Counted from the stretch's first letter, positions 3,692 to 62,424 are shown. The stretch is 64,000 nt of DNA from Octopus vulgaris (GCA_951406725.2 OX597828.1:7564001-7628000), one strand, 5' to 3'. Notes: generated from the letters alone by a model not told the origin. A program made the numbers and translations.

Positions 3692-3783
3692 TAATTTGGT
3701 ACGATCGTTTCACGCTACATCATTTTATTAAATGTTGTAAGTATTACAACAGTTTCAAAATGTTGAGCAATCATCAGCCATTA
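3692..3783 (-). ncRNA. Type I hammerhead ribozyme, long stem II
   Basis: Minus strand: TAATGG CTGATGA TTGCT...AGCGT GAAA CGATCG TA CCAAATTA. Palindromic stem III ACGATCGT, GUA triplet; the first stem II pair is U-U. Confidence 0.75.
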
Positions 3784-4357
3784 ATAGAGGTTTCCCATTA
3801 ATACATAATTTTCACATCAATTGATAACATTATAGAGAAGGTAGATATATAGACAAAGATGTCGATTTGAATTTTAAGAACATTAAGGTAGTAGAGTTTA
3901 TCAACTGACTGAAGAATATTCATAACATTCAGTTGTTTTGAACTGCTAGAAGGTTTGGGAAGAATGATCAATTGAAAGGAGATAGATATTCTCTATAAAG
4001 GGTCACTGTGACCATTTGACATTGACCTGGCTTTTTCTAATACAAAATCTGTTTGCCAAATAGTAGTAAACGGTCTCTGTATCATTACAACCCTCTCTCT
4101 TCCTTAATTTCTATATATAGAACTTTGACATCTATTTCACCCCTATTTCTATAAATAGAAAATCTTTCTTGTCTCCTTCTTCACAAACCTTCTTGCAGTT
4201 CAAAACAACTGAATATTCTGAATATTCTTCAGTCAGTTCATAAACTCTACTCCCTTAATGTTCTTAAAATTTAAATCGACATCTTTGTCTATATATCTAC
4301 CTTCTCTATAATGTTATCAATTGATATGAAAATTATGTATTAATGGGAAACCTCTAT

Positions 4358-4448
4358 TAATGGCTGATGATTGCTCAACATTTTAAAACTGTTGTAATAC
4401 TTACAACATTTAATAAAATGATGTAGCGTGAAACGATCTACCAAATTA
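4358..4448 (+). ncRNA. Type I hammerhead ribozyme, copy with a 1-nt deletion in stem III
   Basis: CTGATGA 4364-4370, GAAA 4430-4433, then CGATC-TA; inverted partner of 3692-3783. Confidence 0.65.
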
Positions 4449-4551
4449 CCGAAGTTATTCTTGTTGCTTATTTTGATTATAATCACCTCATGGATTTATA
4501 TGGATAACACCATACAAAATCTGGTGCATCTAACTTAAGTACCATATTCAT

Positions 4552-4592
<41 letters not shown>

Positions 4593-4596
4593 TATA

Positions 4597-4811
4597 GTTA
4601 ATCCAAACATGAAAACTTAAAGAGAAAGCACAACAACGCGAGGACGTGGAATAAATATAGTATTATTGGACGCTCAGGAAGGAAGGAAAGAAGGAGTGTT
4701 TAACGTTTCGAGCGGAGCTCTTCGTCAGATACATAGGAAAAGGAAAGATCCAAAGAAGGGAAGACGGAGGAAAAAAATCGCCAACGGTACACACGCGGTC
4801 ACATTTTGAAT
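4597..4811 (-). mobile_element. ~215-bp (TA)n-embedded element with minimal hammerhead (core 4697-4733)
   Basis: Minus strand: TGTAT CTGACGA A GAGC TCC GCTC GAAA CG TT AAACA. TA tracts on both sides; homologous over its length to 30658-30869. Confidence 0.8.
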
Positions 4812-41784: not shown

Positions 41785-41844
41785 CATGTTTATATGCAGT
41801 TTGTGTTGCAATATTCCGGATGTGAAATCGTGTATTGAAACCGA

Positions 41845-42255
41845 TCTTGTATTTCGGAATGGTCATTTCTTTTTCTTTTCGTCAAAGAAACACACGTACT
41901 ATATATTTTTTTCTTCGCTCATATATTACTGTTCTTATTTTATTGTTTTAACTCATGTCGAATGTCCGGAAATATTTCGTCGCATATCTGTTATCTCTTC
42001 AGCGAAACTTTTAGTTTCCGTGTGTATTCTTGTTCCACTTACTCCGGAGCAAGAAGACACACGGAAACGAAAAGTGACGCTGAAGAGATCACAGATGTGT
42101 GACGAAGTGGAGCAACAACGTACCCGGAAACGAAAATTGTCGCTGAAGAAGTCACAGACGTGTGACGAAATATTGCCGGACAATGGACATAAGTTATTGT
42201 GCTTATTTGACCAAAAAAAGAAAAAAAGAAAAATTAACCATACCGAAATACCACA

Positions 42256-42257: not shown

Positions 42258-42323
<66 letters not shown>

Positions 42324-42417
42324 ATATAGATACTTTCATATAAGAGACCAAAGTGTACGCACGCCGCTATATATATGTATCTACCCCTTTTGATGTTTGG
42401 GAATTCTCTGATGTTTT

Positions 42418-42503
42418 TTCGGCTGACGAGTACGAGCCATCTATATTTACTGTATTTTTTGTAGCTTATTAAAGATGTCCTCGTACGAAACAATTGTACC
42501 GAG
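42418..42503 (+). ncRNA. Type I hammerhead ribozyme, fully canonical
   Basis: TTCGG CTGACGA GTACGAG...CTCGTAC GAAA CAATTG TA CCGAG. Stem I 4 bp plus G-U, perfect 7-bp stem II, palindrome ACAATTGT, GUA triplet; predicted cut after 42498. Host element ~42340-42642. Confidence 0.9.
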
Positions 42504-42640
42504 ATTTTAATCCATTCTTGTTGCTTTTTTCCTATTTGTAATCACCCCACTTGTCGTATGGTTAACACCATATAGATTTCCGGTGCATCCTAGTTAAGGA
42601 CCATATTCATGTGAATTCATTAGAATTCACTTGAATCTAC

Positions 42641-42719
<79 letters not shown>

Positions 42720-42865
42720 GGGACGGCGTGGATTTCCACCCCGGCATCTGAAACTCGGAGTTTTATCATGGCTACCAAATAATTGTCACATATTACATTT
42801 ACAGATAAGTAAATTTACGTAATATCGAGGTTTCTTTCATTATTTTGTTGTCTTACCATTTTTAT

Positions 42866-42920
<55 letters not shown>

Positions 42921-42923
<3 letters not shown>

Positions 42924-43085
42924 CGAAATGGGACAAGAACGCAAAACATCCAGATAGACGATACAAAGAAAACAAGGACGGGTCATTCGGAGTTTTCTTT
43001 CCTCAGTCGAGTTCCAGATCATCTTTGCAATTTCGGCTGTTATACTCAAGATTGCTCCAATCTGGCCAGCCCCAAGGAAAAACGA
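42921..43085 (+). mobile_element. TA-abutting short repeat; longer inverted copy at ~49505-49835
   Basis: GAAATGGGACAAGAACGCAAAACATCCAGA...CCAATCTGGCCAGCCC.AAGGAAAAA matches the reverse complement of ~49630-49835. Class unknown. Confidence 0.7.
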
Positions 43086-43377
43086 TATGTGTGCGTGCCT
43101 GCTTGTGTATAAATATATACACTCGCGCGCGCGCAACACGTATCCTGTTGCCTGATAATTGTAATAATCAAATGAATAGATGTCTTTTGCTGTTGCTGTT
43201 CTCGTATCAAGAAATGTTTAGGTGCGATTGTGGGGTACGGGGTGTGGTTTTGATTTGGGAGTGCTGATAGTGATGATAGTGATGGTGGGCCTGGTCGGCT
43301 TGTTGGGCGGTCGGGTGGTTGAGCGGAGAGAAAACGAGGTGGAATATCTTGAAAAATTACAAGAGCAAATATTTTAA

Positions 43378-43790
43378 CGACCAACGGCAACGATGGTGAT
43401 GATGATGATGATGATGATGTTGATGATGATGAAGACGGCGATGATAATGATGATGAAGGTGATAATGGTGTTGGGGAGATGGTGATGGTGATGGTGTAGG
43501 TGCTTGCTGCGGTGTGGAGGCTCGGTTTGTGATGATGACAATGTGGAAGAGGAAGAGGAGAACGATGGTAGTGTGATGATGATTGTGGTGATGAAATTGA
43601 TGACGATGATGGTAGTGATGGTGGTGGTGGTGGTGGCCGTGACGGTAATGGTGATGTGGGATTGGGGATTATGATGATGGTGATGATGAGGATAGTAATG
43701 TTGATGATGGTGGTGATGATGATGATGACAATGATGCTGTATGTTGAGGATGATAATAACAATGGTTTTGATGGATCTGATGGCGATCAA
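43378..43790. repeat. Degenerate (GAT/GGT)n tract
   Basis: Direct reading; source of low-complexity ORFs 43046..43762 and 43374..43790. Confidence 0.93.
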
Positions 43791-43864
43791 GAATCAGAAT
43801 GCTGTTTGTTGGCGATACAAAGGATGCTAAAAAATATGTAAGATATTGTGTTTCTATTTTACAG

Positions 43865-43980
43865 GTTTGCGATACCCCCAGCTCGCCAAGCTACCCAGAT
43901 ACCCACCCGACTATCCTACCCTGTTACTCCGTTACACACGAGAGGAAGAGCCACAAATAAATCTGAAGAAAAATAGATAA
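43865..43980 (+). other. Candidate terminal exon of an unidentified gene
   Basis: Acceptor TTTCTATTTTACAG|G, then non-repetitive GC-balanced sequence open in all three frames to stops at 43958-43980. AATAAA at 43956, 43995 and 44006. No protein recognised. Confidence 0.3.
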
Positions 43981-44077
43981 AAAAAAAACAAGTGAATAAA
44001 AAGTAAATAAACATTACAAAATATGAAACATTCAGCTGTTGTTTAATGATGCTGTGAATGGATGTATTTCAATGTGT

Positions 44078-44121
<44 letters not shown>

Positions 44122-44174
44122 TCTATGTGTGTGTATATATATATATACATATATACAAACACATATTTATATAT

Positions 44175-44216
<42 letters not shown>

Positions 44217-44855
44217 TTGTATATGTGTGCTTAGTTTCACCCCACCCTCCCTTGTCTTAAATTTGTTCTATTCTTTGTTTTTCTTTATTTTTAGTTATTT
44301 ATTTTTGGGAGTTTCGTTTTGGTATCAGAACCCTCATAACTGAAGTAGTGTAGGTCGTGAATCTAATGTGTATATTGTCTTATGCATAAGCATACATACA
44401 ATTCCCTTACACACGGGCATGCGCACACACACGCTTCCCGACTACATGATTCCTAGTTCAATCCCACTGCGTGGCCCCTCCGGCAAATATTTTCTACCAT
44501 AACCTCGGGCCGACCAAAACCCTTCAAAGTGGATTTGGAGAACGGAAACTGAAAGAAGCCCGTCGTGTATATGTATGTATATGGACATGTATGTGTGTGT
44601 TTGTGTGCATTTGGTGTCTGTGTTTGTCCTTCACCACCGCTTGACAACCGGTGTTGGTGTCTTTACGTCCCCGTAAGAAGCACATCAGCAAAAAAGACCT
44701 ATAGAATAAGTATTTAGGTTTAAAAACTGCTGGGATCAATTCAGTCAAGAAGAAATTCTTGAAGGTGGGACTTCAGCATGGCCGCAGTCTAATGACTGAA
44801 ACAGGAAGGGGATAAAAAAATCCAGGTTTATATATATATATATATATATACATAT

Positions 44856-44887
<32 letters not shown>

Positions 44888-45086
44888 CTATATATATATT
44901 ATGTGAAATAGAAAGATGAATAATCTTGTAGTAGATTAATCAAAAGTTTAACCGATACCTTAGTAGCAAAAATCACAGCAGTAAAACAGCACGGTTGGAG
45001 GTTTCGCCATGGGCTCTTAGGAGCATAGTTCGATTTGTTTTTGCTCCGCCTCTGTTCTGTTTTTGTTTTTCCAACGGATTTCCTAT

Positions 45087-45175
45087 TTTCTTCCTGAAGA
45101 GAAAGACACAATATGGTCCCATTATTCCATCGGATTTTGGTAATTTGTGCCTTTCGAAACACGTGTAGAATGAAA
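45087..45175 (+). ncRNA. Type I hammerhead ribozyme, fully canonical
   Basis: TTTCTTC CTGAAGA GAAAGACACAA...TTGTGCCTTTC GAAA CACGTG TA GAATGAAA. Stem II 10/11 bp, palindrome ACACGTGT, GUA; predicted cut after 45167. Host element ~44898-45230 lies between TA tracts. Confidence 0.9.
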
Positions 45176-45224
45176 TAAAACGATTTCTGTTCAATCTGCG
45201 TTCAGCTCCATTTCTTCAATTCAC

Positions 45225-45276
<52 letters not shown>

Positions 45277-45284
45277 CATACACA

Positions 45285-45335
<51 letters not shown>

Positions 45336-45622
45336 GTATGTATGTATATATGCGCATATACATCCATATATCTAATATAATAAATGTGACAATTAATTTC
45401 TGTGTGTCAGTGTGTCACACTTCGACCACCTCTCTCACTTTTCAATGACACTTCCTCGTGCTGGGATGAGAGTAACAGTAGACACAGAGACGTTGAGGGC
45501 GGTGGCGAAGGCAGAAAGTGTGAGAGAAAGAAAGAAAAAGAGAGTCAAAGAAATTTAGGGAGAGCTGATGATGTTTTATTGAAAGAAGTAGTGTTGATGG
45601 TGGCAATGACAGTAATAATGAC

Positions 45623-45692
<70 letters not shown>

Positions 45693-45985
45693 ATGTGAGA
45701 GAAAGAGGGAGATGTACAACTTTCCTGGCCAGAAATTCCTGTGGCCATCATACTGAACCAACTACTTAACGCTATCTTTAAAAAAAATTCTTTTTTGCTT
45801 TCTTTAATACATGCATACATACATACATCTTATTTTGATTACAATTTAATGACTTCAAGTATTTAATTATTTAAGTATTATTTTATTTTTCACTCATGTA
45901 TATTTAGGATTTATATATATATATACTCACACACATATTAAAGTATATTTATTAATTAATTATTTTATTGTGCTATTTTATTTTT

Positions 45986-46072
45986 AACCTGATGAGCGAT
46001 TATATTTATATAAAAGTGATTTCTCTACTACTATAATCATTTCTTGAATATAGCCGCGAAACACGTGTCGTT
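45986..46072 (+). ncRNA. Type I hammerhead ribozyme, canonical core
   Basis: AAC CTGATGA GCGATTATATT...AATATAGCCGC GAAA CACGTG TC GTT. GUC triplet, predicted cut after 46069. Downstream 46100-46220 is homologous to 51133-51252. Confidence 0.85.
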
Positions 46073-46352
46073 TTTCTACCTATTATATACGATTTAATTA
46101 TTATTTTTGCAATTTACTTATTCTTTGCATTTTATTGTTATTTTAATTTTAACTTTTCTATTATATGTAATTTTCTAGATGGTGTAATTTAATTGTGCAT
46201 TTTGAATTGATAAAAGGTGTTCTTTTTCTAATTTTATATATATATATATTATATTGTGTGAAATTTGATTTAGTATTTCTAAATTGAATTTCATTCCTTG
46301 TAAGTTTGAATTTTATTCCCTCAAATAATAATAATAATATTATTATTATTGT

Positions 46353-46431
<79 letters not shown>

Positions 46432-46606
46432 CATATATATAAAGCTTACTTGGAAATGGAAGCGTGGCGTTCGATCATATAATAATATAAATAATATATA
46501 AGTACATGCATATATACATACATACATACATACGTACACACACACACACACATATATATATAGAGAGAGTGAGAGATACATACATATCTATATTTATATA
46601 TATATT

Positions 46607-48699: not shown

Positions 48700-48891
48700 T
48701 ACGAAAATGTTAATCCCGTCACATATTTTTCCTTCGCTTTTTTTCTCTCTTTCTCCATTTGTTTTTCTCTCATTCCTTTCTGTCGCAAAGCGTAGGCTCG
48801 AAACGTCAAAGACCTTTCCATTCTTCCCAAACGTCAAACTAATTCACCCGCTTGTTTGTTCCCTCACCTGTCTTTATCATTTGTTTTCTGT
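48700..48891 (+). mobile_element. Short element with decayed minimal hammerhead (48776-48811)
   Basis: CTTT CTGTCGC A AAGC GTAG GCTC GAAA CG TC AAAG. Two core substitutions; 3' end abuts TA; related to the 4597 and 24976 elements. Confidence 0.65.
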
Positions 48892-49341: not shown

Positions 49342-50588
49342 TGTTTTTTGAGAATGAGATAAAAATCCAAGGCTGGGAAGATTTTAGAACATTAGAAGGT
49401 CTTACATTTATAAATAAAAGGTCTTTCCTGTGTATGTGAAAGTTTTGTATCTCTGCCGTAAGACTTCATTTCCATACGCGCCACCTTAATTCAATTAGTC
49501 CTTAGTCGAAAGACTCCTGTTATTATTTTTATTGTATTTATATTTGTGTAACATTGTCCGTTTTTTCCGTCCTTGTTTTTGTATACAATCGCTGCTTTCT
49601 TCCAAGGAATCTAATGCTCTTAGCTTAGTTTTTTTCCTTAGGGCTGGCCAGATTGGAGCAATCTCAAAAATAATTAGCCGAAATTGCGAGGATAATCTGG
49701 TGCTTGACTGAGGATCGAAGGCTTCGAATGATCCGTCCTTGTTTTCTTTGTATCGTCTATCTGGATGTTCTGCTGTCCCTTGTTGTATCACCTAACTGTC
49801 TGGATGTTTTGCGTTCTTGTCCCATTTTATATTTCATATATATATATATATATATAGCGGCGTACGTACACTCTGCTCCCCCCTCTCTCTCTCTGTATAT
49901 ATATATGTATATATATATATATTTACATACATACATGCATGCATGCATACATACACATACATATTCACAAACATGCTGGTCTATGAGCCGCAAGACTCAA
50001 ACTCACTGCTATCCTCAACCTTATTAAAATCTCTTAAGGAAACCAATAATGCAAGCTTAATAAAAGTACTTAACAATAATTCTTCCTCAAAACCATCATT
50101 ATGTGTTAAGCACATCGAAATTTCTTTAGCGGATATCCTTCTGAAAAAATATCAGCCCATAAATTTTGATGGGTCCAAGGTAATTAGTGATTTGTAGTTA
50201 TAGAATTAAGATCAGAGAAAGTTCAAAGTAATAATTTTACAGTAAAATTGTTCCACAGTAAACACATTTCCTTAACATTCTATTCAAGTCTATAGAAAAT
50301 TCAAACAATCTGACAAACAGGTTTCCCCACTTTCTTCCTCACACAAGATATCAACCGACTATAAGTGTACAAATATTTATTGTCTTGCCTAGTTGCTTTC
50401 GTATCACATGTTCAGCAACTAACTATTGACCAGAAAGTCAGAATTTTTTTAGTGTTCTCTGATCAGAACTGCTTGAATTATTTGATATCTATATGCGATA
50501 GTCTCAAAGTTCACTGTACCAATCGTTTGGCATGCGGCTCCGTGAAACACTGAGTTGTAACTAATGCACACTTAGAAACTAATATGTT

Positions 50589-50646
<58 letters not shown>

Positions 50647-50663
50647 AATATATATATACATAT

Positions 50664-50940
50664 ATGGATGTAGGACATCACAAAAACGTAAGCAACATGA
50701 CATACAAAGACAAACTTGGGTATGCAAACACTAAGAGAAACAAATGGAAAAATAGTGGAGTTATATAAAGAACAACCATTCATCAGCCGTCGACTGTCCA
50801 TCTACTCCTCATTTCGAGCACTGACGTTAAATGCTCGAAATGAGAAGTAGATGAAGGGTCGTTCTTTGTGTTACTTGTCTCTTTTCTCTCCTTGTCTTCG
50901 TATTTCATGATTTTTACGTTTTGTGACGTCCTGTATCCAT
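50664..50940. mobile_element. TA-embedded foldback element
   Basis: TIR ATGGATGTAGGACATCACAAAAACGTAA vs TTACGTTTTGTGACGTCCTGTATCCAT; central 22-bp stem 50799-50820 / 50832-50853 with one mismatch. Confidence 0.8.
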
Positions 50941-51014: not shown

Positions 51015-51065
<51 letters not shown>

Positions 51066-51392
51066 TATTATTATTCAAGGGAATAAAATCAAAACATATA
51101 TAATTCTACAAATTATATACCTTTTTTTTACCTTTTTTTTGCAATTTACTTAATCCTTCACATTTTATTGTTATTTTAATTTTAATATTTCTATTATATA
51201 TAATTTTCTTGATGGCGTAATTTAATTGTTCATTTTGAATTGATAAAAGGTGGGTTTAAAAAAAAAATTATATGGTGGTGCTATTAAGTTAGACATGGCC
51301 GAAACATATCTAAGTTTGGTCGAAACATATCTAAGTTTTACATATATACACACATAATTATATGACTGAACGCCACTCATCCATTTCAAGTA

Positions 51393-51442
<50 letters not shown>

Positions 51443-59555: not shown

Positions 59556-62424
59556 GTATATATATATGTATGTATGTATATATGTATGTATATGTATGTA
59601 TCAGTAAGTATGTATATATGTATTTATATACGGATATATACATAAGGGCGTGAATATATTTTTGGGGTAATTCTTTGCACTTCTTAGTTAGTTCATTCAT
59701 AATGAATGTTTAGATAAGCACTTAAACAGGCTTGCCAAGTACTGCTGTTATAATTGTTAGCTACAAAGGGTAAAGCTGGTTTATTTGTAGAAGAGTCACT
59801 GTTGAAAAATTACCTGGTTTTGCCAGATCCCAGTAACATAAACCGTAAATTGGAATCTAAAACACTTGATAAATGAAGAAAGAAATTTTAAATCATTAAA
59901 AATACGTTCATAATGATGAGAAAAGTTTTACTGCCTTAACGTATAATTCTCGTCACGAACGGTAAGGGAGACAACCGAAAGATTATAATTTCTTAAAAAT
60001 AGAATGGGGAAGAGAATTTGATTTTTGGCTGAATGCTTACAAGTGCGAACCTATTACACCTGGGCTGCTGAATATAACTTAACCGTCATTTATAGAATGA
60101 CTAGATAAAGTATAGTTTTTTTTTTGTGAATGAGTACTGAATAGTGTAATAACTTGAAAAAGCTACCCCTAGGTAAAAACCTATGATTGCATCAGTATAA
60201 GGGCTTGAACTGAAAAGAAATTTAATCCCCAAGAAAAATATTGGTTTCAAATTTTGGCCCAAGGCCAACAATTTTGGGTAAGTCAGTTTTATCGACTTCA
60301 TTGCTCAGCTGGTGGTTACTTTATCGGTATCAAAAGGTATAAAAGGCAAAGTCGGTCTCAGGGGATTTTGAAGACAGATCATACAGTCAGACGAAATGCC
60401 GTAAAGCATTTTTACCTGGTTAACGATTCTGCTGACGATTCAGCCAGTTTAGCGCCTTAATCCAACCCCAAAGGATATTGATCTCATGACTTAACAGCTG
60501 CCTGCTTCCAGTTTTTCATCCACTCTCATTTGTCCAAACCTTCAAGATATTTGAAGATATATTTTGATGAACTAGTGTAGGTCATTTTTGTCTTAATTGT
60601 GTTTGCAATGAGACTTGCAAAGATTAAACTATATCCTGCACTTAAGATTTCCTTTTACAAATTATGGTTGACTGAATTTTATCATCTATATTTAATGGGA
60701 GAAATATTCACAGATCTATTATTAGACAATCCTGAAAATATTGAATGGTCAATATGAAAATGTATTAGGTACTAAAACTGATCTTTAGTGGGTAGGCACC
60801 ATAGAATGGTAACGAATGATCATTTAACAAAAAAAATGCTGAGGAAGACCCATTTTTGTTGTAATTACTTTTTCACTGGTCAGAAAGTTTGATAAAGTTC
60901 AATAAATATCTATTTAGCTACATTTATCCAGATATTCAAAATATCGCTAGGGTTTCCAGATCGCAAGAAAGGCAAAGATTTTGATGTAATTACGATTCTT
61001 CTGGATCTGGCTGCTAGGTTTGGTAGTATTGAGCGATACGATAAAGCTGGGGATTATTTATGCTATGATTTCAATTGGCTGGACGATCACGATAACTTCA
61101 AATATTCGAAGGAACAAAAAAAGGCATCCGAAAGGAAGACAAGGATTGTGAGGAGTAGCGGATTGGAGGAACGAATGAAATGAAGTACTTAAATCAAAAC
61201 AATTTCACTTGTCCAATTGATATCGAATAAATTTCTGTAACACACTAATGTAAACTTAGACTAATCATGTAAGATAATCCAAGTTAAGCTACAAATGTTA
61301 ACGTACATATGACTGCCAGCTGGTAGAGTTTCGGAATTGTCTTGTATCTTCTGTCATTCTTTCCTTCTAGAAGCAATCGTTTGCTCAAACTTGAAATGAG
61401 ATGTTTTCCACCAATTTCAGTTGCTCAAGATATGCCGTAACTCACGATACTGTTCCAACGGGAGTTGATACGTAAATCAAGGTTATTGACAGTGTATTTC
61501 GTTCACAGTTTCTAGCTTCCTACATAGATCAAAAGATTTTAATTTATATGGTCATCTAAGACATTCTACAATGAGGATCCGAAAATCTGGTTCCTTTAAT
61601 ATCACAAATATACAGTTATGCTGATATCAAGAACACAATATTGTAATTTATCCCTTGTCAGTTGGCAACTAAAATCCAGGATGACCAGATGACTTTGGAC
61701 AAAGCAACAGCAACACAATTTTCACGCTAATATATAAAATCATTGTTTTAAATTTTTTTATTTAAGGTCAGCAGTTTCATAAGAGAAGAAAGTCGAATAA
61801 ATCGATCTCGGTGCTCAACTGACACTTATTTTGTCGGCCCCGAAAGGATAAAAGGCAAAGCTGGTTTAAGCTTGGAACGCACAGAACCAGACGAAATGCT
61901 GCCAAGCATTTTGTCCGATGAGTGAACGATTCTTCCAGCTCGTCGCCTTAATATGTAATATTATAAAAGCTACTGGAAAAACCTTATAAAGCCGTGCTGT
62001 GACAGGGTAGAAAATCCATATCACGTTGAAATACTTAACCAACTGTAATGGGTAATAGGTGTTAGATGTTCGATTCAAAACAGCTGCGATCATTTTTCAA
62101 CAATTCTCTTGCAAATTGTCTAAGACAAGGGATAAACTGGAAGCGGTTGACTAATTTTCAGTGGAGGAAAGAAGTGGTTTACGAACGGGATTTAATAGCA
62201 GCGGAAATGTGAATGTACAGAGAAAAAAAATCGCCTTTGAATTATTTGTTCCACAAACTGTGCTCGACGTTTACGATGATTTGTCTATGAGATTGTTAAA
62301 AGATAAAGAAAGTTCTTTTGGTTACACACAGGCAGTGACCCGGGAACAAAATTTTCTGGGGTGATGCAAAACCAGGTCCAAATATTTAACAGAAAAAGTG
62401 GATTTTTTTCAGTGTTAACATTAA

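Follow-up and report, generated by a model that had tools for sequence, protein, structure and literature searches.

Type I hammerhead ribozymes with a short, palindromic stem III are described at the ends of metazoan Penelope-like elements (PLEs) (PMC4209133; PMC6765202), and inverted 3'-end copies of PLEs have been described beside forward copies (PMC8557442). In the report on minimal PLE hammerheads (min-HHRs), a single motif gave no cleavage and dimers gave low cleavage (PMC4209133), and the PLE hammerhead of Anolis is reported to cleave only with the element's protein, with no RNA-seq ends reported at its site (PMC11167929). The role of hammerheads at PLE ends is described as still unsettled (PMC8557442). 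Monomer activity with a stem III of 2 bp, equal to that of the motifs studied here, is known where loop contacts exist (PMC7229834; PMC6155905): a type I hammerhead of Acropora cleaves as a monomer at 0.8 per min, and a monomer of the axolotl hammerhead HHR_Amex2 cleaves 22% in an hour (PMC7229834). The giant squid genome is reported to hold 235 Rfam hammerhead loci (PMC6962438), and viral type I motifs with a helix II of 6-8 bp have been termed long (PMC13725137).

We analysed a 64-kb stretch of Octopus vulgaris DNA (GCA_951406725.2 OX597828.1:7564001-7628000; hereafter the window, with positions counted from its first letter). An earlier, sequence-only reading had proposed three complete, unrelated hammerheads on one strand within 3.7 kb, able to cut plus-strand transcripts. 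Hammerheads in PLE ends are already known; what is uncommon here is a long stem II arm that all three motifs share. We consider it likely that the three are leftover 3' ends of three different, Hydra-clade-like PLE families at (TA)n runs, that the parent elements used them as double hammerheads, and that they are near-silent at this locus.

Three complete type I hammerheads lie on one strand

Both strands of the window were scanned with a descriptor, which returned exactly three strict type I hammerheads on the plus strand and none on the minus strand, in agreement with the initial proposal:

42417-42504, plus strand: HH1, type I hammerhead; stem I of 6 bp, arm at 42430-42486, palindromic stem III, predicted cut after 42498
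45084-45177, plus strand: HH2, type I hammerhead; arm of 55 nt at 45101-45155, palindromic stem III, predicted cut after 45167
45986-46072, plus strand: HH3, type I hammerhead; arm of 62 nt at 45996-46057, same palindrome as HH2, predicted cut after 46069

Each motif has the core CUGANGA / GAAA / UH, three helices and an open stem I. CUGANGA starts at 42423 in HH1, 45094 in HH2 and 45989 in HH3, and the predicted cut-site base H17 ends a GUA in HH1 and HH2 and a GUC in HH3. The full cores, the G-C first pair of stem II (G10.1-C11.1, present in all three) and the long stem II insertions had been noted before and were found again here, with half-core spacings of 57 nt (HH1), 55 nt (HH2) and 62 nt (HH3). 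Stem I runs without interruption for 6 bp in HH1 and for 3 bp in both HH2 and HH3, continuing in HH2 through a 1x1 mismatch into a further 6 bp, and proximal stem II is 7, 5 and 3 bp, respectively. Stem III is built alike in all three: the pairs A15.1-U16.1 and C15.2-G16.2 together with the tetraloop form a perfect 8-nt palindrome, and one identical palindrome is common to HH2 and HH3. The motifs are therefore intact as claimed, but the initial reading had given no weight to this stem III of 2 bp with a palindromic tetraloop. Its view that the motifs are unrelated also held, as local alignment scores of 20, 25 and 24 fall within the shuffle range.

No bulge-free, fully palindromic match arose in 150 shuffles that kept dinucleotides within 1-kb blocks. 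With a relaxed descriptor, the shuffles averaged 0.08 matches against 5 in the real window. A core-only pattern gave 26 metagenome matches, which we read as chance because stem I and stem II both reached at least 3 bp in none of the 26. Rfam models gave no hammerhead family at gathering score anywhere in the window, no hammerhead even at E<=10 over the HH2 element, and none among the 150 matches listed of 268.

The minus strand holds a fourth long-arm motif, at 3777-3700, whose core is complete. Three of the four long-arm loci fall inside 3.7 kb on one strand (P=0.009 for uniform placement of four loci, calculated post hoc), a clustering that could be explained by shared (TA)n targets, by the post hoc choice or by purging of one strand.

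A long stem II arm is shared by unrelated motifs

The arm inserts are predicted rods, with z-scores of -3.4 (HH1), -1.7 (HH2) and -2.9 (HH3), and the arm of the minus-strand motif, at 3712-3770, has a z-score of -3.9. A single layout is common to the four arms: a proximal helix, a small mismatch, a second helix, an internal loop and a terminal hairpin.

We compared this anatomy with that of the closest described motifs. HH1-HH3 resemble the metazoan PLE terminal-repeat hammerheads (Cervera and de la Pena 2014, PMC4209133) in being type I, with a full core, G10.1-C11.1, a short stem I and a palindromic stem III, and in occurring mostly as single dispersed copies; the U-rich 5' flank, the AU-rich 3' flank and a stem I of 3 bp agree with the consensus published for PLEs. 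They differ in that the published descriptor permits a stem II of 3-7 bp and a loop 2 of 3-10 nt, whereas the arm here is 55-62 nt, and in that HH1-HH3 lack the extra nucleotide after CUGANGA (PMC4209133), which is present in the minus-strand motif at 3777. An arm of this length also departs from the canonical metazoan arrangement, in which a helix II of ~4 bp carries a short loop 2 that touches loop 1. HH1-HH3 fall outside the descriptor published for min-HHRs, which requires 2 nt from GAAA to UH and a loop 2 of 3-10 nt; a short motif at 25089 matches it. A second published descriptor takes a core spacer of <=17 nt, and relaxed searches were also made on Naiad, Chlamys and Hydra elements in the same work (PMC8557442).

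Compared by eye, Hydra-clade PLEs (Craig et al. 2021, PMC8557442, File S2, including Hydra-1_Obim of Octopus bimaculoides) have a similar AC...GU stem III, a hammerhead near the 3' end and (TA)n targets; in those rows, however, loop 2 is 3-10 nt, and no Hydra reverse transcriptase or endonuclease was found here. A long loop 2, ~28-35 nt by eye, is seen in the type I PLE motifs PLE-X1_sMoe and PLE-X1_sTam of Selaginella, marked non-canonical in the same File S2, but those elements are from plants, endonuclease-less and rDNA-targeted, and have another stem III (PMC8557442). The arm common to three unrelated families is the unusual part of the motifs at our locus, and it escapes Rfam and the two published descriptors. 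In the mostly open-access literature that we searched, we found no description of animal PLE hammerheads with arms of 55-62 nt. Many hammerhead variants were reportedly described by Lunse et al. in 2017, and these may include the long-arm form.

The motifs lie in different elements beside (TA)n runs

The stretches that carry the three motifs, together with the one relative found for the HH1 element, are as follows:

42318-42642, plus strand: HH1 host element; 5' limit approximate, (TG)n run on one side and (TA)n on the other, kin of 4174-4555
3700-4555, no single strand: relative of the HH1 element; inverted duplication with arms at 3703-3967 and 4174-4438 (265 nt, 96%)
44900-45229, plus strand: HH2 host stretch; 330 bp flanked by two (TA)n runs
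at least 45985 to ~46345, plus strand: HH3 host element; a high-depth dispersed repeat over the part examined (to 46232)

The HH1 element aligns to 4174-4555 with a score of 80, against a shuffle maximum of 29. This relative carries a long-arm hammerhead on either strand, namely the complete minus-strand core at 3777-3700 and a plus-strand copy at 4364 with a 1-nt loss in the palindrome. Across 11 named pairs, HH1 and the relative show three changes on both sides (one each in stem I, stem II and the palindrome), one on one side, two broken pairs and five unchanged pairs, a tally drawn from two independent sequences. The HH2 stretch has no relative within the window. The HH3 element has a same-strand relative at 51104-51252 (87%) and, at 51064-51098, an inverted relative of its 3' end (86%); inverted 3'-end copies adjoin forward copies. 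A (TA)>=5 run follows the motif at a distance of 63-166 nt on the 3' side in all seven loci measured, against a background of 0.22 for each, the seven having been picked by us and two of them sharing one run.

The abundance of the HH3 repeat was assessed by contig comparison in four (X1, X6, X8 and X10) of 24 listed runs, none of which is recorded as RNA, over the 520-nt stretch 45713-46232, which covers HH3 alone of the three motifs. Matching contigs numbered 1954 in X1 (organism A), 2092 in X6 (organism B) and 549 in X8 (organism C), counts that include those of a second repeat within the stretch, at 45713-45784. Summed depth in X1, which gives the abundance of the repeat and not its copy number, reached ~89,000 over the 3' half-core of HH3 and ~600,000 over the 3' flank, compared with depths of 14-120 in the eight listed X1 contigs. 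Positions 45798-45984 were skipped as repeat. The drop in depth toward the 5' half-core is possibly an edge effect. HH3 is a member of a very abundant repeat in three organisms.

The family also provides a view of the HH3 fold. At 46073, A makes up 89-92% of depth and forms a fourth stem I pair that is absent from the HH3 copy; at 46046, A makes up >99% of depth and turns a G-U pair into A-U. The majority letters at these two positions fit the predicted fold. At 46056, A makes up 94-98% of depth; it can pair with position 45997 only if the family carries U in place of the C of this copy, no row being given for 45997. No variant row was returned at 46057-46072.

For the separate repeat at 45713-45784, each of the four runs gave a summed depth in the thousands, and the window contains no relative of it. 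A short repeat end, inverted with respect to the end of the HH3 element, lies beside (TA)n at 46429-46497, 29227-29295 and 51354-51394.

The window is rich in microsatellites and SINE-like repeats, which we take to be cephalopod in character. The spacers between HH1, HH2 and HH3 consist of microsatellites, a SINE-like repeat and a decayed motif on the opposite strand, and hold no tandem repeat unit:

42921-43082, minus strand: decayed hammerhead-like repeat inside the HH1-HH3 cluster; CUGAGGA at 43006, second half-core altered, 86% copy at 49631-49773

Other decayed hammerhead-like repeats with one half-core are found at 29764-29938, 50660-50930, 49631-49773 and 48765-48830. Short, ordinary PLE-type hammerhead motifs occur at 4728, 25089 and 30741. 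They belong to a ~210-bp, (TA)n-flanked family with a short PLE-type minimal hammerhead (4594-4809, minus; 25060-25153, minus; 30659-30872, plus), whose copies have a common 5' end and 86% identity between 30659 and 4809, which suggests a SINE-like non-autonomous element. The copy at 4594-4809 and the inverted duplication at 3703-4555 share one (TA)n run, tail to tail. Just upstream of HH1, 41801-42251 is MITE-like, with a 61-nt unit in direct and inverted orientation and a 32-nt outer inverted pair. The window further contains a tRNA gene at 33552-33623 on the minus strand (anticodon UUC, 68.5 bits) that abuts a (TA)n run, and, at 26329-26546, a long GC-rich hairpin with a below-threshold MIR841 match that is likely a DNA-transposon-type inverted repeat. 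A protein-like reading frame of 95 aa lies at 60896-61183 on the plus strand. No host gene or strand could be fixed because this frame (60896-61180) has no homologue among longer proteins.

Predicted cleavage and transcription at the locus

We estimated the cost of the active monomer fold with a nearest-neighbour model that leaves out tertiary contacts. This cost is 2.8 kcal/mol above the ensemble for HH1, 4.9 kcal/mol for HH2 and 8.0 kcal/mol for HH3, which makes HH1 the best monomer candidate under the model. The sequence-only reading had called the three motifs the best activity candidates, and they are indeed the top-scoring ones in the window, with HH1 the best folded; that ranking is tempered by a stem III of the dimer type and, in HH3, by the lack of a stem I pair that is kept by ~90% of its family depth. 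Cross-pairing of stem I strands between neighbouring motifs, as in a double hammerhead, amounts to only 0-1 bp, and neighbours therefore cannot complete each other in cis. With a cross stem I of 1 bp, HH2 and HH3 do not qualify as a cis heterodimer either. From the fold costs and by analogy with described PLE motifs, we predict that HH1-HH3 cut poorly alone and that any host RNA would be cleaved slowly at most, HH1 being the likeliest exception; the motifs are probably near-silent in place. Their inactivity is uncertain because efficient monomer cleavage is known for some type I hammerheads of invertebrates that likewise have a 2-bp stem III.

A plus-strand transcript carrying a candidate exon had been given as an example of one that could be cut:

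43865-44011, plus strand: earlier candidate exon; acceptor-like AG, each of the three frames with stops, AATAAA three times

Frame 1 of this exon gave three matches, to repetitive proteins only and unconvincing, and frames 2 and 3 gave no candidate homologue in a search of longer proteins only, which is weak evidence. As a coding exon it is unsupported. The three AATAAA (43956, 43995 and 44006) lie upstream of HH2 and HH3, and a mature transcript would therefore likely end before both motifs. Were the exon a genuine terminal one, HH1 would fall in an intron, with HH2 and HH3 beyond the likely poly(A) site.

Of the alternatives to the reading that we prefer, the one that survives best agrees with it on origin and returns to the initial view on activity: the motifs would be PLE relics whose arm docks on stem I or on a flank, so that single copies cut any plus-strand pre-mRNA or read-through RNA. 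Such docking would fit the complete cores, an arm whose length and layout are common to three unrelated families, the low cost of the active fold of HH1 and the known activity of 2-bp stem III monomers when loop contacts exist (PMC7229834; PMC6155905). Contigs of the HH3 family in X10, a run guessed to be RNA, could likewise point to transcription, but they are short, depart from the HH3 motif at 2-5 letters and lack specificity for this locus. The pairings found between the arm loops and 30-nt flanks were limited to 3-6 bp rich in A/U and G-U, none of them a convincing pseudoknot, and the costs of the active folds of HH2 and HH3, like the state of the candidate exon, also speak against it. 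We regard monomer cleavage through a docked arm as unlikely.

Probable origin as PLE 3' ends

Several features point to PLEs as the source of HH1-HH3: (i) the short palindromic stem III, of the dimer type; (ii) the (TA)n target, together with inverted truncated copies; and (iii) dispersed multi-copy status, seen directly for HH3 and through one relative for HH1. The case for this origin rests on anatomy because no remnant of a reverse transcriptase or GIY-YIG domain is found near the motifs: none of 127 reading frames reached the Pfam cut-off, and five weak matches in four frames were all far under it. Short 3' fragments need not retain such a frame. A Naiad origin was also considered and is unsupported; the 3' ends of octopus Naiad elements are labelled HHR_half_core, and in Naiad_Ovul the half-cores stand, by eye, in the opposite order (PMC8557442).

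We propose that different Penelope-like families inserted at (TA)n microsatellites, each leaving a short 3' end with a hammerhead. The original target of each hammerhead would be the precursor RNA of its parent element, cut most likely when two same-family copies pair through their 8-nt palindromes to form a double hammerhead, perhaps with help from the element's protein. At this locus each copy stands alone. The double hammerhead of avocado sunblotch viroid (PMC6155905) offers a parallel, being type I-like with an unstable helix III and with helices I and II lacking short closing loops; its cleavage is dimeric, as we infer for the parents of HH1-HH3. The viroid differs in being an RNA replicon that carries its two copies on a single molecule, whereas the copies here are genomic and single.

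It is very unlikely, in our judgement, that the elements are instead monomeric copies of non-LTR retrozymes, spread via small circular RNAs. The HH1 and HH2 elements are non-coding, AT-rich and ~330 bp long and carry a type I hammerhead, and dispersed monomers are reported to be common among retrozymes (bioRxiv 10.64898/2026.07.22.740005). Animal non-LTR retrozymes (Cervera and de la Pena 2020, PMC7229834; bioRxiv 10.64898/2026.07.22.740005) are likewise short, AT-rich, non-coding repeats whose type I motifs have a stem III of 1-2 bp with a tetraloop. They are, however, tandem, with contacts between loop 1 and loop 2, whereas HH1-HH3 are single, unrelated and long-armed, with no tandem arrangement and without the canonical short loop 2. 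Moreover, the motif here is internal to an element with a fixed 3' tail that ends at (TA)n, and depth climbs toward the 3' flank. Retrozymes are themselves traced to PLE ends in the preprint (bioRxiv 10.64898/2026.07.22.740005), and this alternative hence overlaps with the PLE reading.

We give hardly any credence to the idea that the cluster is one domesticated host unit that cuts a transcript into pieces (~2.67 kb and 0.9 kb between sites) or ends it: the one-strand clustering and the palindrome common to HH2 and HH3 (duplex of -10.3 kcal/mol) would suit such a unit, but cross stem I is 1 bp, HH3 departs from its family majority toward a weaker stem I, the spacers are microsatellites, a SINE-like repeat and a decayed opposite-strand motif, and the same-strand pattern would also be expected if a gene on the minus strand had purged minus-strand motifs. 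A host regulatory cassette at this locus has little support.

If HH1-HH3 derive from PLE 3' ends, as we favour, the 55-62 nt arm may be a conserved part of the parent-element ribozyme. A bolder version of this idea, which we hold to be improbable, is that at least three unrelated families carry a conserved multi-helix arm as a functional module, either a surface for docking or a site bound by the element's protein, that removes the need for a second copy; very many scattered copies, including HH1-HH3, would then cut host transcripts. Deleting the arm would be a clean way to test what PLE hammerheads require for cutting. The long-arm form lies in a repeat of very high depth, and hammerhead counts based on Rfam or on short loops would accordingly miss a large set in such genomes.
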